From: Myxococcales bacterium
GTDB lineage: Bacteria > Myxococcota > Myxococcia > Myxococcales > Anaeromyxobacteraceae
DNA: 53,669 bases
Reading direction: 5' to 3'
Assembly: GCA_038320275.1 (NCBI GenBank)
Contig: JBBQEB010000005.1
Span: 1-53,669, forward strand
The notes beneath the pieces were generated by a model. It saw only the letters and a program-made list of their open reading frames with translations. It was not told the DNA's origin and searched no databases. Shown here piece after piece: positions 6,545 through 26,054 of the stretch; the first letter of the stretch is position 1, and every line of letters starts with the position of its first letter. The position numbers and the translations under genes are program-made.

Positions 6545-6754
6545 TGGATGCACAGGGGGACGGGCCTGCGCGGGTCAGCTGTGGTCAGCATGCCGGATCG
6601 ATCGCGCTTCACGACTGGAACAGCTTCGACACCCGGTCGAGCGAACGCTGGGTGTAGACGGACCCAACAGGGCTCGCTCGCCGGCCACCTCTGCGCGTCA
6701 GATCACGTGTCCGCATTCCGCTGTGGGCGGGATGGCTCTCACCGCGGAGGCGTC

Positions 6755-8080
6755 ATGGGTTCGTTCGGGCTGCAGGGTCTCGCCGGAGCGCTCGCCGTCG
6801 CCGCGGCGCTCGCTGCCGCCGCGTGCGGCGGCTCGTCGGGCTCGCCGAGCTCCTCCGGTTCCCCGGACGGCTCGACGTCGGTGGACGGCGGCAATAACAC
6901 GCCCGTGACAGTCACCGTCGTCGGCAAGGTCCTCGCGTACGATGGGCGCGCCGGAGCCTTCCTGCCCGTGATGGTGAACGGTGCGAAGACCTCGACGGAC
7001 GGCAGCGGCAACTTCAGCCTTGGCGACGTGACCGCGCCGTACGAGCTGGTCGTGCTCGACGCGACCCAGAAGACCGCCTACGTGTATCAGGGCCTCACCC
7101 GGCCGAACCCCATCGTGCTCGTGTTCCTCGCGCCGTCCTCCACCACGACTCGGACGGCCACCATCACATGGTCGTTCACGAACTTCACCACCACCGCGCC
7201 GCCGGCCGGGCAGTTCGCAGATGGCCAGCTGGGCTGCGCCGGGTCCGAGGTGAGCGTCAACTGCGGCGTGTCGGGGTCGGTCGGCACCGCGCCGTACGAT
7301 GACACCGTGAACTGGGCCGGCCCGCAATCCTTCCGAACCACTTTCTACGCACTGCAAGCCTACAAGAGCTCGCGGAACGTGGTGACCACCTTCAACCGCT
7401 TCGGCCGGTATGACGGCCAGGTCACGGAGGGTCAAAAGAACGCGGCGCCGATCGCCTTCCAGGCGATCACGAGCAAGGTGCTCGGAGGGACCATCTCCGT
7501 CGCCCCGGGCTCGACGCTCGTGAACCGCACGCTGGGGTTCGTGGCGTCGGGCGAGCAGCTCTACCCGTTCTCGTTCGAGTCCGAGCCCACCGTCGGCATC
7601 GCCCCGAGCTTCACCTGGGCATCGCCAGTCGTCGTCGGGCTGGACCTCTGCCTCACGGCGACGAGCAAGAAGGGGGACGCGTCGGTCCATGCGACGCTCG
7701 CGCCGGTTGCTCCGGACAACACCGCGATCAGCCTCGCGTTGCCGGCACCCGTCGAGCCCGTCGAGCCCGCCGCGAACGCAGTCGGCGTCACTGGCGCCAC
7801 CACCTTCGCCTGGTCCACGTTCGCGGGCGGCACCTACTCCGTCTCCATCGCGCCGTCGGTGCCGGGCCCCCTCTCGTACGCCATCTACACGGATCGCACG
7901 GACGCGAAGCTCCCTGACCTCTCGTCGCTCGGGTACCCGCTGCCGAAGGGTGTCGCCTTCCGGTGGAGCGTGAGCGCCCAGGCGCCCGCGACCGTGGACT
8001 CACTCCTGCAGGGTGTCGCGTTGCGGCAGGCGGCTCAATCGAGTTACTCCGGGCAGCGGCCCTTCACGACCGCTCCCTGA
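6755..8080 (+). CDS. Ser/Thr-rich beta-sandwich lipoprotein, hypothetical
   Basis: GGAGG RBS, lipobox AAAC-GGSS, Ig/carboxypeptidase-regulatory-like N-terminal segment. Confidence 0.75.
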   Translation: MGSFGLQGLAGALAVAAALAAAACGGSSGSPSSSGSPDGSTSVDGGNNTPVTVTVVGKVLAYDGRAGAFLPVMVNGAKTSTDGSGNFSLGDVTAPYELVVLDATQKTAYVYQGLTRPNPIVLVFLAPSSTTTRTATITWSFTNFTTTAPPAGQFADGQLGCAGSEVSVNCGVSGSVGTAPYDDTVNWAGPQSFRTTFYALQAYKSSRNVVTTFNRFGRYDGQVTEGQKNAAPIAFQAITSKVLGGTISVAPGSTLVNRTLGFVASGEQLYPFSFESEPTVGIAPSFTWASPVVVGLDLCLTATSKKGDASVHATLAPVAPDNTAISLALPAPVEPVEPAANAVGVTGATTFAWSTFAGGTYSVSIAPSVPGPLSYAIYTDRTDAKLPDLSSLGYPLPKGVAFRWSVSAQAPATVDSLLQGVALRQAAQSSYSGQRPFTTAP

Positions 8081-9032: not shown

Positions 9033-9200
9033 TCATGTGCAGTCTTCCTTCCGAGGGAGGTCGTCTTTGTCGCCTTCTTGGCGCGCCGACCGGCGCGGTG
9101 ATGGCACCGCTCAGGTGGGCACCCCCAACTTCGGCAGCACCCAGGTCTGCAGCACGATCCAGGCCGCGACGAAGACGACGAATACGAGCCAGTTATCCAT
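9033..9200 (-). CDS. Small single-TM protein, 29 aa to TGA at 9111-9113; 55 aa if TGA is read as Sec (candidate selenoprotein)
   Basis: MDNWLVFVVFVAAWIVLQTWVLPKLGVPT-TGA followed by CGCGCC-GGUC-GGCGCG hairpin; third gene of the trx operon; weak RBS. Confidence 0.5.
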
Positions 9201-9238
9201 GTTCGTAGGAGCCGGGCGCCGCGAGAAGGGTTCGTCGC

Positions 9239-9427
9239 CTACTTCCCGAGGAGCGTCCTGAACCAGGACCCTCGATCCGATGGGGACTCGGCCTTGGCGC
9301 CCTTCGGCTTTTCACGGCACCGGCACCGTTCGGCCAGCGGCACGTCGCCGAGCACCTCCTCCACATGCGCACCACAACCCGCGTACGTCGGTCGCCCGCA
9401 CTTCGAACACTGTACCCGCTGGCACAT
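9239..9427 (-). CDS. Small Cys-rich protein (62 aa)
   Basis: MCQRVQCSKCGRPTYAGCGAHVEEVL...CRC; TGATG coupling to thioredoxin stop. Confidence 0.8.
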   Translation of the reverse strand: MCQRVQCSKCGRPTYAGCGAHVEEVLGDVPLAERCRCREKPKGAKAESPSDRGSWFRTLLGK

Positions 9428-9819
9428 CAGGCGCCTCCTGACTTCTCGGCTCGGGGTGCTGTTCGGTCCTGCTCCTCGATGGTACGGCGTACCTCGTCCA
9501 TGTCGAGCGCCTTCACCTTTCGGACGAGCGTGTCGATCGCAGCGGCAGGGATCGCCCCGGGCTGGGCAACGAGCACCAGGCCGTCCCTCAGCACCACCAG
9601 CGTGGGAATGGCCCGGATCTCGAAAGCGGCGGATAGGCCTGGGTCGGCCTCGGTGTCGATCTTGCCGAACACGACGCCTGGATGGCGCTCGGCTGCAGCC
9701 TCGAAGACGGGTGCGAACGCGCGACACGGACCACACCAGGAGGCCCAGAAGTCGAGCAGAACGACGCCTTGCTCGATGGTTGCCGACAAGTTCCTCTCTG
9801 TCACCTGCACGGTTGCCAT
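9427..9819 (-). CDS. trxA: Thioredoxin
   Basis: DFWASWCGPC active site, cis-Pro IPT motif, GGAGG RBS. Confidence 0.9.
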   Translation of the reverse strand: MATVQVTERNLSATIEQGVVLLDFWASWCGPCRAFAPVFEAAAERHPGVVFGKIDTEADPGLSAAFEIRAIPTLVVLRDGLVLVAQPGAIPAAAIDTLVRKVKALDMDEVRRTIEEQDRTAPRAEKSGGA

Positions 9820-10144
9820 GGGGGCCTCCATGCCCGGTCAGAGCCGTGCGCTCGACGAAGGGTTCAGTGCCCTTCGGCAATTCGACGAGAGGGTGCGCCG
9901 ATAGCTCGCGCTGCGGCAAGAAGCCGCAGTGGATGGACGTGAATGGTCACCTGGCAAACCCACGGTCGTGGAACGCGTCCCCGGATGTTCTCCCGCCCGC
10001 CGGGGTTCGTCGATCGAGCAGGCACGGACCGCCTATGAAAGCCGGCGCGCGACAGGACGTGTCGGTACGCGACGCCGCGTCGCACGAGAGCGGGAACGTC
10101 GCATCTCACGCATCGCAAAAGCCCGGTAATCGCGAGCCCGCGCG

Positions 10145-10161
10145 TGGGCACGGTGCACGCA
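10145..10161 (+). promoter_or_regulatory. Putative sigma54 -24/-12 promoter of FadL-family gene
   Basis: TGGGCACGGTGCACGCA: GG-N10-GC with GGCACG, about 90 nt upstream of ATG. Confidence 0.6.
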
Positions 10162-10247
10162 ACGCAACGGAGAGCACGCGCACAGGACGGCTGGGGGAGC
10201 GCGGGTGGCAGCATCACGCGCAGCGCATTTCTTACCCGAGGATCTCC

Positions 10248-11537
10248 ATGAGAGCGTTGACTCGACTCCTGGCCGTGGCTGGCATCGCCACGGCCTTTCC
10301 CGCATATGCAACCAACGGCATGCGCATGATCGGTTTCGGCGCGTCGCAGGTCTCGATGGGCGGTGCCGCCGCGGCGCTGTCGCTCGACGCGGCCAGCATC
10401 GTCACGAACCCGGCCGGCATCACCGGACTGGAGCACCGCATCGACTTTGGTGCCTCGTACTTCAATCCCACCGTGAAGTACTCGGCCCAGGAGGTACCGG
10501 GGCTCCCCCAGGCCGGCATGGCGATCCGGTCGACGGGCACGTTCGACTCGCAGCGCGGCGCCTCACCGGTCCCCGCCTTCGGCCTCGTCCTGCCCTTCGA
10601 TGACCGGCTCTCGTTCGGCATCGGCGCCTACGGCATCGCCGGCATGGGCGTCGACTTCGCGCAGAACGTCTTCGGAGGAGTCACCTACTCGTCGTATTCG
10701 CAGATGCGCTTCGCGCCGGGCCTCGCCTACCGGCTCACCGACTGGCTCTCCATCGGCGCGACCGCAAACGTCATGTACGCGACCATGGGTTACGACGCCG
10801 CCGAAGGCATGCTGCAGGTGTCGCATCAGGCCGCCTCCGCCTTCGGCGTCGGGGGCACCCTCGGCGTGCAGATTCAGGCGATGAAGGGCCTCACCTTCGG
10901 CGCCGCTTACGAGACGAAGAGCTGGTTCCAGGACTACAAGTACAACATCCCGGCGCACCAGCCGCTCGACCCGAGCACCGGCTTCCCGGCCGTCGACCAG
11001 GGTGGTCAGCCGGTCATCCTGCCCGCCAGCGTCGACAGCATCGCCTTCAACCAGCCGTCCAGCTTCACGGGGGGCCTCGCCTGGAACGGCTTCGAGCCGC
11101 TCACGCTCGCCTTCGACGTCCAGTTCATCCGCTGGTCGGAATCGAACGGCCTGAACCTCCCCGCCTACAACTCGGACGTGCGTCAGACGGGCGCGATGCC
11201 CTTCAACCTCAACTGGAACGACCAGTGGGTCTTCAAGGTCGGTGCCCAGTACCGCGTGAGCAAGCTCCTCGCCCTCCGCGCCGGCTACAACTACGGGAAG
11301 TCACCGCTCGACGCGTCGCGCGCGTTCGAGAACATCGCCTTCCCGGCGGTGGCCGAGCACCACATCACGGCCGGCTTCGGCCTCGACCTCTCCGACCGCT
11401 TCTCGGTCGCGCTGGCTGGCATGTACGTGCCCGAGTCGAAGGTCACCGGCTCGAACCCGCAGCAGCAAATGATCGCCAGCTACCAGGTGAGCATGTCGCA
11501 GGTCGCCGTCGACATGTCGATCGGGTACCGCTTCTAG
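10248..11537 (+). CDS. FadL/OmpP1/TodX-family outer-membrane channel
   Basis: Signal peptide then A-TNG, SMGGA, NPAG motifs; beta-strand pattern; C-terminal YRF. Confidence 0.88.
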   Translation: MRALTRLLAVAGIATAFPAYATNGMRMIGFGASQVSMGGAAAALSLDAASIVTNPAGITGLEHRIDFGASYFNPTVKYSAQEVPGLPQAGMAIRSTGTFDSQRGASPVPAFGLVLPFDDRLSFGIGAYGIAGMGVDFAQNVFGGVTYSSYSQMRFAPGLAYRLTDWLSIGATANVMYATMGYDAAEGMLQVSHQAASAFGVGGTLGVQIQAMKGLTFGAAYETKSWFQDYKYNIPAHQPLDPSTGFPAVDQGGQPVILPASVDSIAFNQPSSFTGGLAWNGFEPLTLAFDVQFIRWSESNGLNLPAYNSDVRQTGAMPFNLNWNDQWVFKVGAQYRVSKLLALRAGYNYGKSPLDASRAFENIAFPAVAEHHITAGFGLDLSDRFSVALAGMYVPESKVTGSNPQQQMIASYQVSMSQVAVDMSIGYRF

Positions 11538-11552
11538 ATCGAGCGGCCGCGC

Positions 11553-11588
11553 CACGCCGAGGCCTTCGCGTCACGAGGCCTCGGCGTG
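11553..11588 (+). terminator. GC-rich hairpin after FadL gene (probable terminator)
   Basis: Perfect 13-bp inverted repeat CACGCCGAGGCCT/AGGCCTCGGCGTG; no U-tract. Confidence 0.55.
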
Positions 11589-12155
11589 CTCGCCGCGGTC
11601 CGGCACGGCAGCACCAAGTCGTCCGCATCGCGCATCAGCTTGTGATCCCGGCGCACCGCGCTCCCACACGGTGTCGAGGGAGCTCAGGTCGACGTACGAG
11701 AGAGGGATGAGATCATCCCCCCTGCAGCATTCCCAAGACCGTCTCGGTGGGCCTCCCCTGGTGCATCACAGCGGCCTGTAGCCACTTGCGCGGCAGGTTC
11801 GGCACGCTCCAGTCGCGGGCGGGCGCCCCACCCCGCTGCGATCCGATCCTTCACCGTCGGCATGCCGGGCGACCGCCGCTCACCGTCGGCCTTGGGGATG
11901 CCAGAGCCCGGCGAACGAGCGGCCGGAGGTGTCGATGCTCAGCCTCGTCCGCAGCAGCCCGTCGATCCTACGGCCGCAGCGCCGGCGGCGGCTGAAAGGT
12001 GCCCGCCTGGAGCTCGTGGCCGAGCTCCGCTGGAGTTGCCAGAGGGGCAATCACCATGACCTTCGAACTACGTCGCCAGCCGCTCGGCGGAGTCCACTGG
12101 TTTACCGTCGAGAGCCTCGAGCGCCCTTCTGGGAGCCGCGGCGCCACGCTACCGC

Positions 12156-13475
12156 CTACCCGCAACCACCCTTCACCGCCGCCTTCGACTGCAGCTTCAC
12201 CTTCTTCGCGAAGGCGTAGGCCGGCCAGGTCGTCCCCTCGTGATCGGGCGCGCCCCCCGAGACCGGATCCTCGCACGGCGAGCGGAAGGCCCGGGAGTGT
12301 GGCAGCTCGGGCCAGGCCGCGGGCAAGCTCGCGCCGGTCGCGTACGCAAAGCGGAACCGGGGAGCGTCCGAGGAGGCAGCGGGGGCGCTCGCGGCCGGCT
12401 CGGCCACGCAGGCGGGCACGGCATACTTCTCGAGCCAGCCGTTCATGCCGCCCTCGATGACGTAGAGGTTGGGTGCGCCCATCGCCTCGAGCCCCTTCCA
12501 CGCGGCGAGCGCGGTGGCCTCGCCGTTGCTCACGAGGAAGGTCACCGTCGATGCCGGCTGCTCGAGGAGCGGCTTCAGCGTCTCCGGGCGGAAGAGCGCC
12601 TCCGGCGCGATGCGGCGCGCGCCGCCGAGGTGGAAGAGGTTGAAGTCGTGCTCGTCGCGCAGGTCGAGCACCACCACCTGCACGTTGAGGTCGTTGCGCA
12701 GCGCCACGACCTCGCCGGGGTGGACGAAGATACCGCGCTCCTCCACCGGGCGCCGGGCGTCAGCTCCCAGCAGCGCGAACTTCTCCTCCGGGGTGGGCTG
12801 GCCGCGCACGGCCACCACCAGCGCCAGGGCCATCAAGAGCCCCGCCGCAGCCAGCTTCGCGAACGACCGGGGGGCGAGCGCGATCTCCTTCCAGGGCCGT
12901 CCCTGTCCGAAGCGGCGCTCGAGCAACTCTGCGCCCCAGAACATGGCGAGCGCCATCGCCACCACTAGCATCACGGTCGCGCCGACCGGCAGCCCGAACA
13001 GCTCGGGCAGGGTGAATCGGCCCATGCTGGACGACATGAAGAAGGTCTCGAAGTGGCCGACCGTCTCGCCGAAGAGCCCGGCCCCGGCGAGCACGCCGCC
13101 AAGGAAGAGCATCCCGTCGATCTTGAGCGTGGACGCGCCGACGACCGCGGTACCCGGGCAGAAGCCGCCGAGGATGAAGCCCACGCCCATCACCAGACCG
13201 CCGACGATCCCGGGCCAGAGGTAGGTCGGGTTCACCCAGACGCGGCTCATGTCGAGCAGGCCGAACGCCGTCGCACCCGCGACGAGAACCGCCGCGACGA
13301 TGATGCCGGTGAACATGACCTTCAGGACGGTGAGGTCCTTGAAGTAGAACTGCGCCGCCAGCTTCCGCGTATCGCCGAAGCCGGCCAGCTCGAGGGCGAC
13401 GCCGAAGCCAAAGCCGATAGCACCGAAGACGAGCGCGTAGCCGAGGGTTCCGGACGTGAGCGTGTAGGGCAACAT
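12156..13475 (-). CDS. YeeE/YedE sulfur transporter fused to rhodanese-like domain with C-terminal GGCG
   Basis: GFGD..AQFY, GFCPGT, multiple TMs; DLRDEHDFNLFHLGGA and IEGG rhodanese motifs; ends KGGCG-TAG. Confidence 0.88.
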   Translation of the reverse strand: MLPYTLTSGTLGYALVFGAIGFGFGVALELAGFGDTRKLAAQFYFKDLTVLKVMFTGIIVAAVLVAGATAFGLLDMSRVWVNPTYLWPGIVGGLVMGVGFILGGFCPGTAVVGASTLKIDGMLFLGGVLAGAGLFGETVGHFETFFMSSSMGRFTLPELFGLPVGATVMLVVAMALAMFWGAELLERRFGQGRPWKEIALAPRSFAKLAAAGLLMALALVVAVRGQPTPEEKFALLGADARRPVEERGIFVHPGEVVALRNDLNVQVVVLDLRDEHDFNLFHLGGARRIAPEALFRPETLKPLLEQPASTVTFLVSNGEATALAAWKGLEAMGAPNLYVIEGGMNGWLEKYAVPACVAEPAASAPAASSDAPRFRFAYATGASLPAAWPELPHSRAFRSPCEDPVSGGAPDHEGTTWPAYAFAKKVKLQSKAAVKGGCG

Positions 13476-13498
13476 GGTAGATTCTCTCCCGGAAGCCG

Positions 13499-14032
13499 TT
13501 AGTTCCAGAGCCGGCGGACAGACCACGCCAGCGCGTAGGCGCTCGCGAAGACCGCGAACGCGAAGGCCCAGCTGCCTACCGACAGCACCGCGCCGCCGGA
13601 GAGGGCCTGCCCGGAGGTGCAACCGCGCGCCAGCCGCGCGCCGTAGCCCATGATGGCGCCGCCCAGGATCGCGAAGATGACGCGGGTGCGATTGCTGACG
13701 TTCGGCCCTTTTCGCAGCTCGAGCTTCACGCGGCGGTTCAGGAGGCCGGAGGTGAGCCCGCCCAGCACCGTGCCGACGAGCATGAACATGCCCGAGTAGT
13801 TCCAGGCGCTGCGCGCTCCGCCAGCCATCTCGGCGAGATAGGCGACCCGGTCCACGTGGCCTGGCGCAAACCAGTCGAGCACGCCCACCTCGACGCGGTT
13901 CAGCGCCGCCGAGGCGCCGAGGCCGCCGCCGGTCACGTAAAAGGAGAGGAAGAGGACGACGCCGAGCAGCGTGCCGGCGAGGTACGGGTTCAGGTACGGT
14001 CGTGGCCCGCGCGCGATGGTGGTGGTGGTCAT
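13499..14032 (-). CDS. YeeE/YedE thiosulfate/sulfur transporter family protein
   Basis: NPYLAG, GARLARGCTSG motif, 4-5 TMs. Confidence 0.9.
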   Translation of the reverse strand: MTTTTIARGPRPYLNPYLAGTLLGVVLFLSFYVTGGGLGASAALNRVEVGVLDWFAPGHVDRVAYLAEMAGGARSAWNYSGMFMLVGTVLGGLTSGLLNRRVKLELRKGPNVSNRTRVIFAILGGAIMGYGARLARGCTSGQALSGGAVLSVGSWAFAFAVFASAYALAWSVRRLWN

Positions 14033-16302
14033 GCCTGGCTCCGCTCGGGGGCGCCATCGACCTCGAGGCGCTGGTAGCCGGTGACCATCGCCTCGAGGTG
14101 CTCGCTGGGCGTGGGACCGGTGCTGACGAGATAGACGTGGAGGACGAAGAAGGTGAGGAGGAACCACGCGCCGGCGTTGTGGAGCGGGGCGACGATGGCG
14201 AGACCGGCGAAGGCGCTCCCAACCGCGGGCCAGTGGCCGATGGCCCAGATGAGGATGCCGGTGACGATCTGCAGCGGGAAGAGGACGTTCAGGAGCCCGA
14301 GGTAGGTGAGCTGCTGGAGCGGGTTGAGCTCCTGGCCGGGCGCGTTGGCGGGGTGGTCGCCGCCGAGGAAGATCCCGCGCGTCTGCCAGGCCACGTGCTC
14401 GAGCGCGCGGGCCAGGAAACCCTTCGGCTCGGGGATGAACGTCCGGATGGCGCGCGTGGCCAGGTGGTAGAAGAGCGCCAGGAACGCGTTCACCATCAGC
14501 ACCACGGCGAAGGCGTTGTGGAGCGATACGGCGGTGGCGAGCCCCATCCACGCCCCCGAGCCGGCCAGGTGTACGGCGAGCCCGGTCGCGATGAGCATGG
14601 CGCCGGAGAGTGCCATGGTCCAGTGCCAGAGCCGCACGTAACGGCCGAAGACGTAGGCCTTCCGCTCGGCGGCGACGTGCCCAGCGGGCGCGACGCGGCG
14701 CCTGCGCAGCGCGAAACGGATCGCGCCGTGCGTCGCCACGGCGAGACAGGTGGCCAGGAAGAGCAGGAAGCCCAGCGTGTTGGACAGTCCCTGGCGCGTG
14801 TGTCCGAGCACGTGGAGCCCGCCGGGGGTCGAGGTCGCGTCGCGCCGGAGCGCGAGCCCTCCGCTTGCGGTCGGGCCGAGGACACCGGCGAGCGCGACCC
14901 GCGAGCGGTCGGGCGGGCGCGGCGGCGTCCCGCCAGGCAGGTAGCCAGCGACGAGAAAGTCGCCCGAGAGGCGCGAGTGTGCGGCGTGGCAGGCGTTGCA
15001 GTCCCGCAGTGCCCGGTCGCGCGTGGAAACCCCGTGCGCAAGCGGGACCGGCTCGAGCGTGCCATCCACCGCGGGGTGCGCCACGCCCCGCGCCTGGAGC
15101 CGGGCGGCGACGAAGGAGACCTTCTCTTTCGAGTCGAGGCGGAGCTCGTGCTCGTCGAGCCGCCCATCGTGATCGGCGTCGAAGGCCTCGAGGACACCGG
15201 GCGCCCAGGCCGTGCCCTGCACGAACGCGCGGGTGACCTCGGCGAAGGGCACCTCGACCCGATCGGCGCCGGAGACCCACCGGTACCGGGAGACGAGGTT
15301 CACAGGCGCGAGGCGCCGCGCGCCGTCATCCTCCAGCCGCTCGACCAGGAGCGGCTGGAAGGGTCGCAGGATGGCCGCGTTGAGCGGCTCGCCGGGGCGG
15401 CGGTCGACGTTCCGGTAGCGCACCGCTGGCGCTCCCTCTAGCGTGGCCACGGTGGCATCGATCATCTCCGCCACGGGTGCCCTCGGCGCGGCGAGGTGGC
15501 AGGTGGCGCAGGAGAGCACGGCCATGTGCCGCGCGCGGTAGGGCAGGAAGGCATGCGCCTTCTCGGGATCGTGGCAGGCTCGGCAAGCCTGGCGGCCGAG
15601 GCGGTGGTCGGGACGCACCAGGAAGTCCGCGTGCGACAGCCGGCGCGGATCCGCGGTCAGGTACTTCAGCGTGGGCTGCTTCGCGTCCACGCGCGCCGGG
15701 TCGTTGCCGGCAAAGTGGCAGGCGACGCAGTCGACGAGCTTCGCGGCGTGCACGTCCCAGGGCGCGCCCAGGCCGGCCTTGCCCTCGAGGTTCAGGAACG
15801 AGTCGGACATCTTCTGCGGCGAGACCACCGCGCCCTCACCGAGCGTGAGCGAGAAGGTCCGGCCGTCCTTCGGCGCGGCTTCGAGGTCCGCGGGGAGGCT
15901 GAGCGCGCTGGCGCCGCCCGCGACCAATCCGTGGCAAACGCCACAGTTGGCAGCCTTCGGCGCGCCGATGCGGATGGCCGCGCGACGCAGCCTGCCGTCG
16001 GGCTCCAGCGTCGCCGGCCGCACGTCGAGCTTGCCGCCGTCGACGTGGCACTGGAGGCACGTCGCCTTCACGAGCGGGGTGGTGTGGCCGCTGTGCGCCG
16101 CGATGTACTTCGCGTCGTGGCAAGCCCCGCAGGTGGTCTCGACGTGGAGCGCGTCCGAAGTCGCCACCTTCTTGCCGGCGGCGTCGAGTGGCGCGAACGC
16201 CGGGTGGATGGGGTTCACGGCCTGTTGCGCGTGCGCCGCTGGCGCCGCGAGCAGGACCGCGCAGAAGCCCGCGACGAGCGCGCCGAGGATGGGGCGTCTC
16301 AC
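14029..16302 (-). CDS. Periplasmic 7-heme cytochrome c fused to membrane cytochrome b (HyaC/PhsC-like)
   Basis: Signal peptide; 7 CxxCH motifs; C-terminal RLWHW, LHN, NPLQQLTY, LHN, LHVY; GTGA overlap with upstream gene. Confidence 0.88.
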   Translation of the reverse strand: MRRPILGALVAGFCAVLLAAPAAHAQQAVNPIHPAFAPLDAAGKKVATSDALHVETTCGACHDAKYIAAHSGHTTPLVKATCLQCHVDGGKLDVRPATLEPDGRLRRAAIRIGAPKAANCGVCHGLVAGGASALSLPADLEAAPKDGRTFSLTLGEGAVVSPQKMSDSFLNLEGKAGLGAPWDVHAAKLVDCVACHFAGNDPARVDAKQPTLKYLTADPRRLSHADFLVRPDHRLGRQACRACHDPEKAHAFLPYRARHMAVLSCATCHLAAPRAPVAEMIDATVATLEGAPAVRYRNVDRRPGEPLNAAILRPFQPLLVERLEDDGARRLAPVNLVSRYRWVSGADRVEVPFAEVTRAFVQGTAWAPGVLEAFDADHDGRLDEHELRLDSKEKVSFVAARLQARGVAHPAVDGTLEPVPLAHGVSTRDRALRDCNACHAAHSRLSGDFLVAGYLPGGTPPRPPDRSRVALAGVLGPTASGGLALRRDATSTPGGLHVLGHTRQGLSNTLGFLLFLATCLAVATHGAIRFALRRRRVAPAGHVAAERKAYVFGRYVRLWHWTMALSGAMLIATGLAVHLAGSGAWMGLATAVSLHNAFAVVLMVNAFLALFYHLATRAIRTFIPEPKGFLARALEHVAWQTRGIFLGGDHPANAPGQELNPLQQLTYLGLLNVLFPLQIVTGILIWAIGHWPAVGSAFAGLAIVAPLHNAGAWFLLTFFVLHVYLVSTGPTPSEHLEAMVTGYQRLEVDGAPERSQA

Positions 16303-17714
16303 TTGCGGCCTCCGGTCTTGATGGGATCCCCGGCGTAGCCGAGGGCCTTCCAGTCGATGCGCCCCTCGGCGCCGTGGCAGTCGGTGCAGCCGAGCGCCTT
16401 CTCCTTCGGGACCACCATGTGCGAGAGCGGCCAGTTCATCTCCGTCGGCGCAAACCCGTACTTGCCGCTGTAGGCGATCTCCGACGCCTTCTCGCCGAGC
16501 TTGAAGGCGCTGTCCCAGTCGAACGTGGTCCAGTAGCCGCCGGGTCCGCCGGTGACCGGCGGGAAGAGGTAGTCGTTCCCTGCGTCGTAGGGCTGGTTGG
16601 CCCGGTGGATCTTGACCGGCCAGATCCGGGCAGTCTTGTCTTCCACGTCCCCGTGCAACGGGTTCAGCACCGTGGACTTCCCTGGGTCGATCTTGTCGCC
16701 CAGCAGGTAACGGCTCACCGTGCCGTTGAACCACCGGTACTCCGGCTTCGCGTCCTGCACGTAAGTGAACTCACCCTTGATCTTCAGGTAGTGATGGGTG
16801 TCGTCGAGCCGGCTCGAATCACCGGCCTTGCTCCAGTCCCAGGTCGCCTTGGTCGGCACCTTCCCGGCGTAGCTGGGGATGTGGCAGGTCTGGCAGGCCA
16901 CCGCCGAGAGGTGCGCGTTCAGCCGCTCGTCCCGGTGCTCGGGCTTCACGTGGCAGTCGATGCAGGCGACGCCGTGGGAGTCCTCGACGCTCACCGAGAA
17001 GGCGCGGCCGCGCAGCTGGTGACCGGGCGCGGCGTGGCAGTCGACGCAGAGGAACTGGTGGCGGCCCATGTGGACGTCCTCCTCCTCGAAGGGATGCGCG
17101 AGCGAGGAGTCGAGGTCGCCGTGCTTCACGCCCTGCCCGCCGCCGCCGTAGGCGTGGCAGCCGAGGCAGTTCTCGCGCCCGGGCGTGCCCACCGACTTCG
17201 CCGTGGCGACGAGGTCCGTCTCCTTCGTCGGCAAGCCGAAGGTGCCCTTCGTGTACGCCCCCGTCCGCTCGTGGCAGACGAGGCAGTCCACGTTCTCGGC
17301 CTTGGTGAAGTCGAACGAGTCGTCTTCCCAGCCGTAGCCGATGTGGCACTTGGTACAGGACTTCTCGTTGCCTCGGGCGGCGATGCAGAAGTTGTTGAGG
17401 AGGTTCCGCTTGCCGATGCGCGTCTTCCCCAGGCGGCCCGCGATCTGGACGTCCTCGCCCAGCCAGAGCCAATGCGAGGTCTTCATCACGGCGGCCGCGT
17501 CCGCATGGCACGCGAGGCAGCGGCGCGTCACCGCCTGCGGGCTTTCGAAGGGCCCCGTGATGATGGGCGCGTGGTCGAAGTGGGGGCGGACCTTCCTCGC
17601 GAAGCCCGCGGCATGCTTCGCCTCGTGCGCGGCCGGCCGGTTGACGAGGGCGGCGGCGACACCGCCCGCGGCGACCACCCCGATGGCCGCTGCCAGGATC
17701 CAAGGACTCTTCAT
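16299..17714 (-). CDS. otr: Octaheme tetrathionate reductase family c-type cytochrome
   Basis: 8 CxxCH motifs; GKRNLLNNFCI, CHIGYGW, CQTCHIP and KGEF signatures; N-terminal signal/anchor. Confidence 0.9.
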   Translation of the reverse strand: MKSPWILAAAIGVVAAGGVAAALVNRPAAHEAKHAAGFARKVRPHFDHAPIITGPFESPQAVTRRCLACHADAAAVMKTSHWLWLGEDVQIAGRLGKTRIGKRNLLNNFCIAARGNEKSCTKCHIGYGWEDDSFDFTKAENVDCLVCHERTGAYTKGTFGLPTKETDLVATAKSVGTPGRENCLGCHAYGGGGQGVKHGDLDSSLAHPFEEEDVHMGRHQFLCVDCHAAPGHQLRGRAFSVSVEDSHGVACIDCHVKPEHRDERLNAHLSAVACQTCHIPSYAGKVPTKATWDWSKAGDSSRLDDTHHYLKIKGEFTYVQDAKPEYRWFNGTVSRYLLGDKIDPGKSTVLNPLHGDVEDKTARIWPVKIHRANQPYDAGNDYLFPPVTGGPGGYWTTFDWDSAFKLGEKASEIAYSGKYGFAPTEMNWPLSHMVVPKEKALGCTDCHGAEGRIDWKALGYAGDPIKTGGRK

Positions 17715-17788
17715 GGATGGTGCAAAGCCTCCGACGGCTGGGCAACGTCGCACGCATTGCTTCGGCCCGTTTCTCGCTAGGGATGCTC

Positions 17789-17805
17789 TGCGTGTGGCGT
17801 GCCCA
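17789..17805 (-). promoter_or_regulatory. Putative sigma54 -24/-12 promoter of otr operon
   Basis: Minus-strand TGGGCACGCCACACGCA, GG-N10-GC, about 75 nt upstream of otr ATG, next to a divergent bEBP gene. Confidence 0.7.
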
Positions 17806-17907
17806 ACAGTGGATGACCGCAAGAACAGGCACTTGAACATGTGGACCTTCTGCGCATGCAACAGGGCGTTTCGATCTGTGCCACACTGCGTTTCAACGAG
17901 GTGAAAC

Positions 17908-19344
<1,437 letters not shown>

Positions 19345-19443
19345 TCCTGACGCCATCGGGGCGACCTCGGCTCGGCACCGCTGGCCTCCGAGCGTTCAGC
19401 CGGGCCCGAGCGCGGCCGCGCGCCTCGGCGCAGCGCGAGAGCT

Positions 19444-19797
19444 TCATCGCGGCATGCTGCCGATCCCGCCTGCGTTCACGACGTCCGCGAACCCGGCGCG
19501 GACCAGTGCCTTGGCCGCGATGGCGCTGCGCCCGCCGGATGCGCAGTAGACGACGACGGGTTTTCCTTTCGGGACCTCTCCCATCCGTCCGGCCAGCGCC
19601 TGCACCGGGATGTTGATGGCGCCGGGATAGGCGCCGGTCCGGTATTCTTCCCGCGTGCGCACGTCGAGGATAACTGCGCCGGCCGCCAGCTTCTCGCTCA
19701 CCTCCATGGAAGACGCCTTTCGACCTCCCAGGAGACGAGGAAGCACCAGGAGAGCGACGGCCAGCACCACAGCCGCGAACACCCAGTTCGCGCTCAC
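19444..19797 (-). CDS. Membrane-anchored rhodanese domain protein
   Basis: N-terminal TM, LDVRT, YCASGGRS active loop; GTGA overlap. Confidence 0.9.
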   Translation of the reverse strand: MSANWVFAAVVLAVALLVLPRLLGGRKASSMEVSEKLAAGAVILDVRTREEYRTGAYPGAINIPVQALAGRMGEVPKGKPVVVYCASGGRSAIAAKALVRAGFADVVNAGGIGSMPR

Positions 19798-21458
19798 GCG
19801 AGCTCCACGTCGAAGCCACCCTCCGCCTGCATCGCCTGCCAGCCGCCGGTGACGTTGACCACGTCCAGGCAGCCGCGCTCCCGGAGGATGCGCAGGGCGA
19901 GGTGCGCCCGGAACCCCGACTTGCAGTGGACCGCGATTCGGCGATCGCGCGGCAGGGTCTCCCAGCGCGCCCGCAGATCATCGACCGGGACGTGGACCGC
20001 GCCGCGCAGGTGGCCGGCCGCCCACTCCTTGTCGGTCCGGACATCGAGGACGAGGGGCGGCGCCGCGCTCGCCAGGGCCGCCTGGAGCTCCGCCGCCGTG
20101 ATGAGCGGGCTGAAGCCCGAGAGGTCGTTCTCGCCTACGAAGGCGGCCACGTTCACCGGATCGTTGGCCGAGGAGTAGGGCGGCGCGTAGGCGAGGTCGA
20201 GCTCCGCCAGCTCGTGGAGCGTCATGCGCGACTGCAGCGCCACCGCCAGGACGTCGATCCGCTTCGCGACGCCGGCACGTCCGAAGGCCTGCGCGCCGAG
20301 GAGCCGCGCGGTGGGGCGGTCGTAGACGAGCTTGAGCACGAGCTCCTGCGCCCCGGGGAAGTAGCCAGCGTGATGGTCCTTGTAGACGACCGCGACGCCC
20401 ACCTCGAAGCCGGCCTCGCGCGCGGTGCGCTCGGAGAGACCCGTCATGGCCGCTGTGGCCTCGAACACCTTCACGACGCTCGTGCCCAGCGCGCCGCCGT
20501 AGCGCAGGTCCTGCCCGAGCGCGTTCGACGCGGCGATGCGGCCCTGCCGGTTGGCGGGCCCGGCCAGCGGGATCCGCACCTGGCGCCCAGAGACCCGGTG
20601 CTTCACCTCGACCATGTCGCCCACGGCCAGGATGTCGGGGTCGCTGGTCCGCAGGCGGTCGTCGACTGCGAGCCCACCCGCGGGGCCGAGCTGAAGCCCT
20701 GCCGCCTTCGCCAGCGGGAGCTCGGGGCGCACACCCACCGAGAAGAGCACCAGGTCGGCCGGGATGCGGCGACCGTCGGAGAGCTCGACGGCCCTCGCCG
20801 CGGCGTCCACGGCCGTGACGCCGACGCCGGTCAGCACCCTCACGCCGTTCGCCGCAAGCTCGCGCGCGATGTCGTGGCCGAATTCCCGATCCATGACGGC
20901 CATCACGGACGGGAGCAGCTCCACCACGGTGGTCTCGAGCAGGCGCTTGCGGAACGCCTCGGCCATCTCGAGCCCGATGAAGCCACCGCCCACCACCACC
21001 GCCGTGCGCGGCTTCCTCGCCTCGATGAACCCGTCGAGCCGGTCCATGTCCGGTACGGTCCAGAGCCGGAAGACGTTCTCGGCCGGGACGCCGGGGATGC
21101 CGGGCACGATGGGGTTCCCGCCCTGCGCCAGGATGAGCTTGTCGTATCCCAACCAGAGGTCCTCCTGGCCGCGGCGCACGCGCACCCGCTTGCCGGCACG
21201 GTCGATCTCCCGCGCCTCGGTCTCGACCATCACCTTCACGCGGTAGCGCCGGTCGAAGCTTTCGGGCGTCTGCAGCAGGAGCTTCGTCCGGCTCGCGATG
21301 TCACGCGAGATGAAGTAGGGCAGCCCGCAGTTGGCGTAGGACACGTACGGGCCCCGCTCGACCACGGTGATGTCCACCTGCTCGCTGATGCGCCGTGCCC
21401 GCGCCGCAGCGGTCGCGCCGCCGGCCACCCCGCCGATGATCAACAGCCTCGTCTTCAT
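19794..21458 (-). CDS. CoA-disulfide/persulfide reductase with C-terminal rhodanese (CoADR-RHD/Npsr-like)
   Basis: GGVAGG, SYANC, GGGFIGLE, YAPPYS, rhodanese HCKSGFR. Confidence 0.92.
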   Translation of the reverse strand: MKTRLLIIGGVAGGATAAARARRISEQVDITVVERGPYVSYANCGLPYFISRDIASRTKLLLQTPESFDRRYRVKVMVETEAREIDRAGKRVRVRRGQEDLWLGYDKLILAQGGNPIVPGIPGVPAENVFRLWTVPDMDRLDGFIEARKPRTAVVVGGGFIGLEMAEAFRKRLLETTVVELLPSVMAVMDREFGHDIARELAANGVRVLTGVGVTAVDAAARAVELSDGRRIPADLVLFSVGVRPELPLAKAAGLQLGPAGGLAVDDRLRTSDPDILAVGDMVEVKHRVSGRQVRIPLAGPANRQGRIAASNALGQDLRYGGALGTSVVKVFEATAAMTGLSERTAREAGFEVGVAVVYKDHHAGYFPGAQELVLKLVYDRPTARLLGAQAFGRAGVAKRIDVLAVALQSRMTLHELAELDLAYAPPYSSANDPVNVAAFVGENDLSGFSPLITAAELQAALASAAPPLVLDVRTDKEWAAGHLRGAVHVPVDDLRARWETLPRDRRIAVHCKSGFRAHLALRILRERGCLDVVNVTGGWQAMQAEGGFDVELA

Positions 21459-21616
21459 CCGTTCCCCTCCTCGTAGCCCCTTCCTCGTCAGAGCCGCAGG
21501 GCGAGGAAAGGGTGCGGAGCGCCTCCCCCGGTGACGCAGCACGCCGGACCCGCCCGGGAGCGCGACACGCCCCGGACGTGCCGAGCCTCCGGGACGATGA
21601 CGGACGAGACTTCCTC

Positions 21617-22750
21617 ATGCACAGACCTGCACTCGCGCTCCTCTTCTTGGTGGCGTCCTCTGCGCTGCCCGCCCTCGCCAGCGGTTCCAGCCTGCAGGTC
21701 GAGCGACAGCCCATCGTCGATCGTCGTCAGGGCGGCATGGTCGTGTCGACCGTGGCGGTCCCCAAGGGCTGGAAGCTCACGAGCGACGTCCAGTGGCGCT
21801 ACCAGGACGTGAGCTGGCCGGTGCGCATCCATGCGCGGGTGGAGTCGCCCGACGGCTCCGCGTGGGTGGAGTTCTTTCCCGCCGAGTTTCTCTACTGGCT
21901 GGAGCCCGGCCGCGACCCGCTCCCGGTCGGCGCGCGGGCGCTGGGCATGACCCACGCCCCCGGCTTCGGCATCGATGCCGCCATGAAGAGCTTCGTCATC
22001 CGGCCGAACCGAGGAAGAGCCCCCGGGCTCCGCATCGTGAGCTCCCGAACGATTCACGGCCTGGCGGAGGCCTTTCACCAGAAGTCCAGTCCGGGAGACG
22101 AGCGCGCCTATCGCCTCACCTACCAGCTTCGCGGGAAGCCGGTGGAGGAGGACCTCTTCGGCATGCTGGGAGCGCCCGCTCGCATCCCGTACACGGGCCC
22201 GCAGGGCACGACCTACGAGGTGCACCGCGGCCTCTACTACGTGCACTCCATGGGCGCGATGAACGGTCAGCTCGCCAGCGTGCGCCCGCTCCTCGCCTTC
22301 ATCGCGGGCTCGGTCACCGTGGATCCGGCCTGGCAAAAGCGGCGCGAGCAGGTGGTCGCCCAGCTCGCCGAGCAGTTCAACCGGGCGTTGCAGGCCGGCT
22401 ATGCGCAGATCGCGGCGGCCGGGGCCGCGAGCAAGGCCATCAGCGCCCAGAACGATGCCATGCTCTCCTCCATGAGCTCGCAGCGGCAAGTGCAGGCCCA
22501 GCGCGAGGCGGTGAAGCGCGCCACGGCGAACGCCTCCCCCCGCGGCGGGGACGAGTTCGACGGCTACATCCGCGGCACGACCAAGATGAAGGATCCGTAC
22601 TGGGGCGAATCCGAGCAGTCGAGCAACGCGTCCTACCACTGGACCGACGGTCAGGGGACCTACCGCAGCTCGAACGACCCCAGCTTCGACCCCAACGTGG
22701 GGGCCGGGGGTGGCGCCAACTGGCAGAGGATGGAGCCAGCTGGAAAATGA
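21617..22750 (+). CDS. Secreted hypothetical protein
   Basis: Signal peptide MHRPALALLFLVASSALPALA; GC3-biased ORF. Confidence 0.75.
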   Translation: MHRPALALLFLVASSALPALASGSSLQVERQPIVDRRQGGMVVSTVAVPKGWKLTSDVQWRYQDVSWPVRIHARVESPDGSAWVEFFPAEFLYWLEPGRDPLPVGARALGMTHAPGFGIDAAMKSFVIRPNRGRAPGLRIVSSRTIHGLAEAFHQKSSPGDERAYRLTYQLRGKPVEEDLFGMLGAPARIPYTGPQGTTYEVHRGLYYVHSMGAMNGQLASVRPLLAFIAGSVTVDPAWQKRREQVVAQLAEQFNRALQAGYAQIAAAGAASKAISAQNDAMLSSMSSQRQVQAQREAVKRATANASPRGGDEFDGYIRGTTKMKDPYWGESEQSSNASYHWTDGQGTYRSSNDPSFDPNVGAGGGANWQRMEPAGK

Positions 22751-24839: not shown

Positions 24840-26054
24840 CTACATGCCTGGGAAGGGGAACGGCGTCCCGTCGGAGTAAGAGGTCGGCCACCCCGTGAAG
24901 TCTGCCGAGCCGTCCGTCAGGGTGGGGACCGGCCCGAAGACAGGGTCGCAAGCCTGCGCGGAGGCATCGCCGAGGTGCGTGCTCGACTCACCGGCGAGGG
25001 TGGCGCCGCTGGCGCTCTCCGCCTTCATGAGCCAGAAGCCCTCGCGCTGCGCAGAACCCTCGCCGCTGCCTTCGTGGCAGGTGACGGCCGCGACGTGATC
25101 CACCGGCGACGCGAGCTGTCCACCCATCATGAGCGCGTCGGAGCGGCCGTGCACGGTTCCGTCGGCGACCTTCGTCCAGCGCGAGACGAGCTGCGCGTTG
25201 GCGGCGACGAGCGACGGGTTGGCGGGACAGGCGAAGACCATCTGGTCCTGGAGCTTCAGGCTGCCGCCCTTGCCCGCCTCGCGGAAGTAGACGTACGAGC
25301 CGCTGCGGGGCGCCTCCAGAGCGGCCAGCACCGCGGGCGAATCGAACTTCGAGCCGTCGAGCTCCCACGCGACGTTGGCCGCGGTGACGGTCAGCTTGCG
25401 GGAGCCGGCCCCGCTGTCGAAGGCGACGTCGAGCGTGCCGGTGGTGACCTTCTCGCTGGCGTAGGCGGCGTGCAGCTTGGCGAAGTCGATGTGGACGGTG
25501 CCCTTGCCCTGGTGCGGCCTGGTGGCTCCGGTGCGGTCGATCCGCCCGGTCATGACGGCCGGTAGTGGCGAGGTGCCGGCGACACCGAGATCGAGCTCCC
25601 AGTCGTACACGCCCGCCGAAACGAGCGTCAACGTGAACTTGCGCTCGACGCCGCCGTCCACGTCGTCCCAGGTGCGGGAGGTGGCGGTGGAGCTGAGGGG
25701 GGCCTTGGCGAGGAGCGCCTCGACGTGTCGCAGGGCCTTGTAGATGTGCCGGTTCACCCGCTCCACCACCTCGCGCTGACGCAAGAAGAGGTGCGGGTGG
25801 CAGGCCGAGCCCTGCATGACGACCGCCGTCTGTAGCGCCGCGCTGCGCCCGGGCGCGTCCGCGTCGAGCACGAGCGCCGCGCCGTCGAGGTCGGTGGACT
25901 GCTGATCGAGCGACAGCTCCGCGTAGCTGGGGGTCGCGCTCGCGAATGCCGCGGAGCCACCGCCGCCGGCGTCGACTGCGCCGGGGCCGGAGCTGCCGCC
26001 GCAGGCGACGAGGAAGGCGAGTGGAGCTGCGAAGAGGATGTTGCGCGTTTCCAT
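24840..26054 (-). CDS. Hypothetical lipoprotein
   Basis: GGAGG RBS, lipobox LVAC-GGSS. Confidence 0.8.
   Translation of the reverse strand: METRNILFAAPLAFLVACGGSSGPGAVDAGGGGSAAFASATPSYAELSLDQQSTDLDGAALVLDADAPGRSAALQTAVVMQGSACHPHLFLRQREVVERVNRHIYKALRHVEALLAKAPLSSTATSRTWDDVDGGVERKFTLTLVSAGVYDWELDLGVAGTSPLPAVMTGRIDRTGATRPHQGKGTVHIDFAKLHAAYASEKVTTGTLDVAFDSGAGSRKLTVTAANVAWELDGSKFDSPAVLAALEAPRSGSYVYFREAGKGGSLKLQDQMVFACPANPSLVAANAQLVSRWTKVADGTVHGRSDALMMGGQLASPVDHVAAVTCHEGSGEGSAQREGFWLMKAESASGATLAGESSTHLGDASAQACDPVFGPVPTLTDGSADFTGWPTSYSDGTPFPFPGM

Follow-up and report, generated by a model that had tools for sequence, protein, structure and literature searches.

An otr operon with a split YeeE channel in a Myxococcales contig and its possible place in periplasmic sulfur reduction

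The octahaem cytochrome OTR (octahaem tetrathionate reductase) has, to our knowledge, been without a confirmed cellular role for more than 20 years, a question open since 2004. The question is raised again by an otr gene in the window analysed here, a stretch of 53,669 nucleotides from a Myxococcales bacterium of the family Anaeromyxobacteraceae (GenBank assembly GCA_038320275.1, contig JBBQEB010000005.1, positions 1 to 53,669 of the forward strand). Which substrate does such a cytochrome serve when its gene stands with a split YeeE channel, an outer-membrane channel and a sigma54 activator? The new observation is that, within this family, one set consisting of the activator, its promoter, FadL and a Cys-tailed split YeeE serves three interchangeable catalysts. 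What is added is the link between the OTR and Psr versions, as the single parts belong to known families and the Psr version is already in print.

An initial annotation had described the 12.4 kb at 9033–21458 as an island for the respiration and trafficking of sulfur oxyanions and polysulfide. Every gene it named was found in place by profile searches and an ORF check, the gene overlaps GTGA (16299–16302) and ATGA (14029–14032) were confirmed exactly, and its theme of sulfur handling is supported. A C-terminal Cys tail, the exchange with PsrABC and a gene read through UGA are features absent from it. The features on which the argument rests are the following:

16299–17714, minus strand: otr, octahaem cytochrome c (471 aa; hydrophobic leader at the N-terminus)
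14029–16302, minus strand: seven-haem/cytochrome b fusion (seven CxxCH motifs plus PF01292)
13499–14032, minus strand: YeeE half 1, PmpA-like (PF04143 positions 175–308; GCTSG, Cys138)
12156–13475, minus strand: YeeE half 2, PmpB-like, with rhodanese fold and GGCG tail (PF04143 positions 7–191; GFCPG with Cys106; Cys438)
17788–17805, minus strand: sigma54 promoter of the otr operon, −24/−12 type (GG-N10-GC site)
17889–17907, no strand: inverted repeat of the GTTTCA...TGAAAC type, candidate activator site (present in most rows of the upstream alignment)
17908–19344, plus strand: sigma54 enhancer-binding activator (PF00158)
10145–10162, plus strand: sigma54 promoter of fadL, −24/−12 type (14 fixed bases in common with the otr site)
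10248–11537, plus strand: FadL/OmpP1-family outer-membrane channel (PF03349)

The 12.4-kb region has five transcription directions and hence is not a single operon. The activator gene is divergent from otr and fadL is convergent on the otr operon, while a CoADR-rhodanese pair and a thioredoxin trio form units separate from it.

The conserved four-gene core and its regulation

Relatives of otr were collected by scanning 185,579 species genomes, and the best 80 of 178 relatives were kept. The cytochrome b fusion and both YeeE genes were found within 6 kb after otr in 70 of the 80 loci. The contigs of the other ten stop less than 5.2 kb after otr, and the core is missing nowhere where the contig had room. 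The conserved unit consists of otr, the seven-haem/cytochrome b fusion and the two half-YeeE genes. The closest otr relatives are titled Anaeromyxobacter or Myxococcales, and titles of core-bearing relatives include Myxococcota, Chloroflexota, Gemmatimonadota, Bacteroidota and others. Co-occurrence in other genomes, the test set beforehand, was observed for the core, the activator and FadL. Clustering beyond chance holds for these genes, is weak for the CoADR-rhodanese and was not seen for thioredoxin. The 12.4 kb as one conserved island was rejected, since no full-length close CoADR occurs within 10 kb of otr in the 80 loci. Recent horizontal transfer of the region was rejected as well, the GC profile being without a step. 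No description of otr with a split YeeE or a Cys tail was found in the literature covered, mostly open papers without their supplements, and the accessible texts of PMC6896113, PMC11237559, PMC10376724, PMC13490349 and PMC9431562 contain no description of this operon.

The otr product scores 529 bits on the model TIGR04315 (cut-off 375), has eight CxxCH motifs and matches 1SP3, the OTR of Shewanella oneidensis, over its whole length (E 1.8e-130). The two proteins share the TIGR04315 assignment, eight haems, and a Lys and a Cys at the catalytic haem. Lys102 and Cys110, located at this catalytic (second) haem, align with 1SP3 and are invariant in all 74 aligned sequences, i.e. those of 73 intact loci of the 80 and the window protein. 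A Lys ligand and a Cys at the second haem are named as OTR features (10.1101/2023.04.20.537704). According to PMC12949373, Shewanella OTR is a soluble protein that may be supplied by CymA, whereas the protein studied here is accompanied by a cytochrome b/multihaem wire of its own, by a split YeeE with a Cys tail and by a sigma54 activator.

The seven-haem domain of the fusion is paralogous to OTR but lacks the catalytic segment with Lys and Cys. Of its seven haems, six are invariant and the first one is missing in 32 of 59 aligned proteins; His560, His595, His708 and His722 of the cytochrome b part are kept in all 59. The best cytochrome b profile was PhsC (E 5e-29, below cut-off). A structure model of the fusion matched 1SP3 with its seven-haem part and 1KQF_C, which has the FdnI fold, with its b part. 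Judged from its sequence, the seven-haem/di-haem fusion is a predicted electron wire to the quinone pool, and the annotated path from quinone via cytochrome b and the seven haems to OTR is supported as a predicted one. The term respiration, in the sense of energy gain, was not retained, because a cytochrome b of the FdnI/PhsC type leaves the direction unfixed. CbcL of Geobacter is a multihaem c/cytochrome b fusion, to which the window fusion can be likened by description only. A seven-haem relative of OTR also occurs in Methanosarcina: MmcA has lost the catalytic site and serves as a wire, but it works for Rnf and is without a cytochrome b fusion (10.1101/2023.04.20.537704).

Other multihaem proteins were observed in these genomes. 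Longer OTR-like proteins, with open frames of about 700–770 aa that match residues 52–302 only (G019:C3:803077-804318 and similar), sometimes lie within 10 kb of otr. Very large multihaem cytochromes with 26, 20, 16 and 14 CxxCH motifs are encoded on contigs C24 and C62 of the window's own genome.

The two PF04143 genes match the family's C-terminal half and its N-terminal half, are adjacent (23 nt apart) and have one channel Cys each, which corresponds to the definition of PmpA/PmpB. These proteins are halves of YeeE and are proposed to form a heterodimer (PMC11582611). By analogy, the split YeeE is a putative sulfur-transporting heterodimer, although each half exceeds the 130 aa given for PmpA/PmpB in that paper. 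The two YeeE genes of the initial annotation are thus present, as two halves of one transporter and not as two transporters. The features of full-length YeeE/TsuA (330–350 aa, three conserved Cys) were not found, and the TsuA model gave 35 bits compared to 400.

Half 2 carries an extra helix, followed by a rhodanese fold and a GGCG terminus with Cys438. The model of its rhodanese domain aligned with 3TP9 over 103 residues (Z 12.1, rmsd 1.9). GGCG termini were found in 60 of 70 loci; two of the others are cut by contig ends and eight are broken or end otherwise. The alignment of half 2, from which these ten loci without a complete GGCG-ended frame were excluded, comprised 61 intact proteins. 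All of them keep both Cys106 and Cys438, and all lack the rhodanese active-site Cys, with no Cys at positions 314–319. Based on hydropathy, the positive-inside charge rule and the model helices, the tail is predicted to be periplasmic. No solved YeeE structure was among the matches listed by a profile search and two fold searches, in which the rhodanese domain filled the lists, and Sud (1QXN) was only one of many rhodaneses among the fold-search matches to half 2. A predicted complex of OTR with the rhodanese-tail domain scored 0.14 (mark 0.32). With SoxY the tail has the terminal GGC motif alone in common, and the genome contains no PF13501.

The codon of the channel Cys is TGA in 3 of 80 metagenome loci. 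In L279, L333 and L334, a YeeE half has this TGA about 310 bases into the match, in the context GF-Sec-PG, a position that differs from the GUxSG form listed in the available part of a 2026 review. Selenocysteine (Sec) variants of both OTR and YeeE are on record (PMC13188914). These variants and the TGA at the channel position point to thiol chemistry.

GG-N10-GC sites are located about 75 bases before otr and about 85 bases before fadL. The long sigma54 motif shared by both occurs only twice in the 4.1-Mb genome, before these two genes, and rpoN is present. A sigma54 site precedes otr in all 19 loci having the activator. Among the 61 loci without it, the pattern matched five, of which just one is consensus-like. 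From the motifs, the AAA+ activator and rpoN, otr and fadL are predicted to form a sigma54-type regulon, in line with the sigma54 control claimed earlier, and the inverted repeat at 17889–17907 is a candidate binding site of the activator. The sensor domain of the activator matched no family; all 51 aligned sequences keep its Cys37, and 50 of them keep Cys127. A pattern scan, which does not reach weaker sites, yielded no sigma54 site before the CoADR or thioredoxin genes. The fadL gene is the only copy in this genome and was found in 71 of 92 genomes of the family. It lies within 10 kb of otr in nine of the 24 closest loci, and of 20 fadL loci that were fetched, 14 have an OTR or Psr module next to the gene.

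Three catalysts with a common set of parts

Loci without otr were found via fadL. These carry psrA, psrB, two half-YeeE genes and an NrfD-type psrC, with fadL and the activator at the flanks. PsrA of a sister genome matches Thermus PsrA (2VPW) with E 6.5e-216, its best NCBIfam model being PhsA (below cut-off), and the YeeE half in psr loci terminates in GGC-x-G. A close PsrA is present in 54 genomes, from which 29 psr loci were examined. The split YeeE has a fused tail in 23 of them, while in three a tail-less YeeE is combined with a 103-aa exported protein ending in GGC. Within 6 kb of psr, the activator was found in 17 and fadL in 12 of the 29 loci.

The third catalyst is a divergent octahaem protein, which scores 161 bits on TIGR04315, keeps the Cys and has Met at the Lys position in 20 of 20 loci. 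A small xGC-tailed protein adjoins it in 16 of the 20, and three contigs end there. Where the YeeE of these loci is tail-less, the xGC-tailed protein comes after it in 12 of 13 cases. The same activator subfamily adjoins otr, psrA and the divergent octahaem gene. In the 80 metagenome loci, the OTR version is predominant.

An example of the divergent octahaem gene, which is common in this family, is L154:5187-6557 (plus strand). Near it, L154:4853-5161 (plus strand; also L335–L352) encodes an exported xGC-ending protein of about 103 aa with CusF-like features (Atlas), a candidate soluble sulfur carrier. Proteins of this type adjoin a tail-less split YeeE, the divergent octahaem gene or PsrA. 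L154:6579-7466 (plus strand) encodes a 296-aa exported protein of no family that is recurrent near these modules, and a 62% identical copy is located in the window's own genome (contig C95:8443-9258).

Of the 92 family genomes, 24 contain a close OTR without Psr and 33 contain Psr without a close OTR; 21 combine the two, and 14 lack them both. Because of these 21 genomes, a strict mutual exclusion was rejected. The window contains no molybdopterin catalytic subunit, and no close PsrA was found anywhere in this genome. The OTR module likely works like PsrABC/PhsABC, which is not to say that it is such a system.

The phsABC-pmpAB-sulfurtransferase clusters of Candidatus Electryonea, Candidatus Lernaella and Caldithrix (PMC9324843) share with these loci a periplasmic sulfur reductase, two half-YeeE genes and a sulfurtransferase. 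In the Lernaella cluster, the sulfurtransferase is fused to one YeeE half (PMC9324843), and the sister genomes studied here have the same layout. The published clusters differ in that the catalyst is a molybdoenzyme, and the accessible text of PMC9324843 mentions no Cys tail, octahaem version, FadL or regulator and gives no function.

Proposed mechanism and alternatives

Based on the sequences and on analogy, we give an even chance to the proposal that OTR works like Psr/Phs and reduces sulfane sulfur on the carrier Cys tail rather than free tetrathionate. The proposal is made because the swap partner is of the polysulfide/thiosulfate reductase type, because a channel and a terminal-Cys carrier are what stays constant, and because the Cys is the residue common to both octahaem clades. 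The swap of modules points to tail-bound sulfur on a protein as a specific class of substrate, with Cys110, Cys438 and the channel Cys as key residues.

A sulfane-sulfur species (polysulfide or thiosulfate-derived) would enter via FadL and be sensed by the Cys-bearing activator. The sulfane sulfur would be loaded onto Cys438 of the periplasmic tail, which may serve as a membrane-tethered Sud- or SoxY-like arm. Electrons would pass from menaquinol via two b haems and seven c haems to OTR, and the proton gradient would probably drive this transfer, as in PhsABC; when menaquinol reduces low-potential sulfur via an FdnI-type cytochrome, proton gradient is spent. Cys110, next to the catalytic haem, would attack the S–S bond and sulfide would leave. 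The tail may also hand over some of the sulfur to the two cysteines of the channel, to be imported. Where the CoA-persulfide reductase and the rhodanese are encoded, they would reduce the imported sulfur, be it for biosynthesis or as a sink for NADH.

This working model has quinol-driven periplasmic reduction and a rhodanese-fold carrier in common with PsrABC and Sud (Wolinella; Thermus 2VPW). Sud is soluble and uses its rhodanese active-site Cys, whereas here this Cys is missing, the carrier Cys is on a channel-tethered tail and the catalyst is haem instead of molybdenum. It is Sud that presents polysulfide to PsrABC (PMC2628731). MccSep of Geobacter sulfurreducens, compared by description and not by sequence, is similar in that S–S bonds are cleaved by a multihaem periplasmic protein; it reduces polysulfide with a haem-side Cys/Sec pair. 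It differs in its five-haem family, His/Cys ligation and Sec (PMC13510729).

Taken more broadly, and with confidence somewhat short of even, the loci may represent a plug-in periplasmic sulfur-redox chassis made of a porin, a Cys-sensing sigma54 activator, a split YeeE and a terminal-Cys carrier in cis or in trans. Mo (Psr) or haem (the two OTR clades) catalysts would be interchangeable on it, and OTR would be a Mo-free reductase of protein-bound sulfane sulfur. If this is true, the OTR question of 2004 would be answered, and Anaeromyxobacter-like soil and freshwater bacteria as well as Anaerolineae would have an unrecognised role in sulfur cycling. If OTR does reduce sulfur on a protein tail, the many metagenome papers scoring otr as tetrathionate or nitrite respiration would have misread it, and split YeeE proteins would gain a role in dissimilatory metabolism.

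Several observations weigh against the reduction of carrier-bound sulfur by OTR. FdnI-type cytochromes normally feed electrons into the quinone pool. YeeE is missing from three of the 29 psr loci, a carrier from one of the 13 tail-less loci, and four of the 20 fadL loci are without module or activator. The avoidance between OTR and Psr is weak (Fisher p 0.03, with kin that are not independent and many incomplete genomes). Both modules are kept in 21 of 92 genomes, often as neighbours and with a separate YeeE pair for each, an arrangement as compatible with substrates that differ or follow one another as with redundancy. Nitrite and hydroxylamine are the preferred substrates of purified Shewanella OTR (cited in PMC12949373), and the lone knockout hint for OTR concerns sulfite (PMC12949373). 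Caldithrix, which has otr and the phsABC-pmpAB cluster (PMC9324843), did not respire sulfur, thiosulfate or tetrathionate (PMC5317091).

The knockout hint, extra sulfite in a Shewanella ttr otr mutant (PMC12949373), favours an unlikely but credible alternative. OTR would be a periplasmic sulfite/S-sulfonate reductase that completes the cleavage of thiosulfate by Psr/Phs or by the tail, so that tail and channel only collect the sulfane half. The adjacent otr and psr operons of several genomes (L029, L162, L205, L209) would fit, as would the lack of sirohaem sulfite reductase in 24 of 45 OTR genomes compared to seven of 47 without OTR, a count made with PF01077, which mixes several enzyme types. 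Within genera, this trend is not significant (odds ratio 2.7, p 0.14), and replacement of sirohaem sulfite reductase by OTR was rejected, being a trend only that fades at this level. Furthermore, 24 genomes including this one have OTR without a close Psr, and a dedicated tethered Cys tail would be needless for free sulfite. Adjacent PF01077 pairs of dsrAB-like size were noted in G008:C33:101917-103713, G054:C82, G074:C6, G009:C15, G059:C13 and others.

No PAPS reductase, sirohaem reductase, dsrA or SoxY was found in this genome, which is 90.7% complete, and this keeps sulfur acquisition alive as an option. We consider it rather unlikely that the module acquires reduced sulfur for biosynthesis or acts as a fermentative electron sink without respiratory growth. 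Such a role would be compatible with the carrier chemistry proposed above, with the import of sulfur by YeeE proteins (PMC11582611) and with the negative growth tests of Caldithrix (PMC5317091). However, sirohaem reductase is kept in 21 of 45 OTR genomes and in most Psr-only genomes, and if assimilation were the only purpose, a chain of 15 haems plus a di-haem part would be an expensive one.

The chain might also run in reverse: sulfide or thiosulfate would be oxidatively coupled to the tail at OTR, as in SoxAX/SoxY, with electrons entering menaquinone and a proton gradient being built. The FdnI/HyaC fold of the cytochrome b is quinone-reducing in formate dehydrogenase and hydrogenase, and the carrier arm of SoxY is GGCGG, which the GGCG tail resembles. 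Use of SoxY is also described (PMC11582611). This direction is improbable, since no downstream oxidation pathway was found in the genome (no dsrA, no SoxY), the swap partner is Psr-type, and PhsC, the best cytochrome b model, is a reductase subunit.

The route given in the initial annotation, in which OTR reduces free tetrathionate to thiosulfate, YeeE imports the product and the CoADR-rhodanese reduces it inside, appears highly improbable, in spite of the in vitro activity of Shewanella OTR (cited in PMC12949373) and a 36-fold rise of otr transcripts at day 8 in tetrathionate-amended sediment (PMC8528874; its preprint likewise reports the induction). A knockout study of 2026 rules out the namesake reaction in Shewanella: two strains had no otr phenotype on tetrathionate, and tetrathionate use of an otr deletion mutant of strain ANA-3 was unchanged (PMC12949373). 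Free tetrathionate was dropped as the OTR substrate on this ground. The route also leaves the invariant tail unexplained, and CoADR is linked in five of 30 genomes only.

That OTR is a nitrite/hydroxylamine reductase with incidental sulfur neighbours is scarcely conceivable, since its strongest reported in vitro activities (PMC12949373) are set against a split YeeE partner in 70 of 70 loci with room, in several phyla, and a separate gene of the NrfA family, truncated where its contig stops, elsewhere in the genome.

Accessory genes and the UGA-containing microprotein

The remaining genes of the region are:

19794–21458, minus strand: CoADR-rhodanese fusion, Npsr/CoAPR type (Cys44, Cys512)
19444–19797, minus strand: membrane-anchored single-domain rhodanese (PF00581, Cys85; overlaps the CoADR stop)
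9427–9819, minus strand: thioredoxin, WCGPC (PF00085)
9239–9427, minus strand: 62-aa Cys-rich protein (unnamed known family; no Pfam/NCBIfam match)
9033–9200, minus strand: one-helix membrane microprotein, likely a selenoprotein (in-frame TGA 9111–9113, hairpin 9082–9097)

The CoADR-rhodanese matches 8A56 (E 4e-137) and 3NTA (E 3e-133), and on TIGR03385 it scores 426 bits, under the cut-off of 579. The full-length match and the retained Cys44 and Cys512 agree with the annotated Npsr-type identity. As in Npsr/CoAPR (3NTA, 8A56, 3ICR), a CoADR with both Cys is combined with a rhodanese domain; here its link to the module is no more than occasional. Thirty other genomes of the family have close orthologues, and in 22 of 24 loci the membrane rhodanese comes after the CoADR gene. 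In five of the 30 genomes the pair is near an OTR or Psr module: G055, G056 and G050 have it at a distance of 11–13 kb from otr, and in G068 and G070 it comes immediately after psrC. In four CoADR loci with 8-kb flanks, no module was seen. CoADR, rhodanese, fadL, activator and the otr operon are all combined in G055; the window's layout is not unique, yet it is a minority arrangement. The CoADR-rhodanese is accessory and an ordinary member of its family.

Thioredoxin was rejected as a conserved member, having weak partial matches in two of 80 otr loci only. The 62-aa gene, without a match in other loci, was rejected as well; its product clusters at 0.97 in the Atlas, with recognition slightly below the mark. 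The fixed route ending in cytoplasmic persulfide reduction was not upheld, as the CoADR pair is linked in so few genomes and thioredoxin is not conserved nearby.

Three sizeable ORFs of the window, 21614–22750 (plus strand), 6548–8080 (plus strand) and 24840–26054 (minus strand), match no Pfam/NCBIfam family. The first of them, which runs divergently from the CoADR gene, has no homologue near any otr locus.

The microprotein gene reads through a TGA (codon 30) after one membrane helix. Homologues were found in 63 of 301 genomes of the phylum, with exactly one internal TGA in 62 of 66 matches. A hairpin recurs about 20 bases downstream of the TGA. In an alignment of 15 of 30 loci, with the structure derived from the window's own sequence, 79% of cells pair, a value reached by none of 500 shuffles, and two-sided changes occur in five of seven pairs among the 15 sequences. 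The genome has selA and two tRNA-Sec. The protein has no NCBIfam match and its motif is not in Table 1 of PMC13188914, as far as that source is accessible. Judged from these sequence features, 9033–9200 likely represents an uncatalogued bacterial selenoprotein family. Its neighbours vary and are often DUF302 or rhodanese genes, and three loci are near Psr or divergent-octahaem genes. A second copy is located on contig C263 of the same genome, and many members of the family end in Cys (window; L164–L193).

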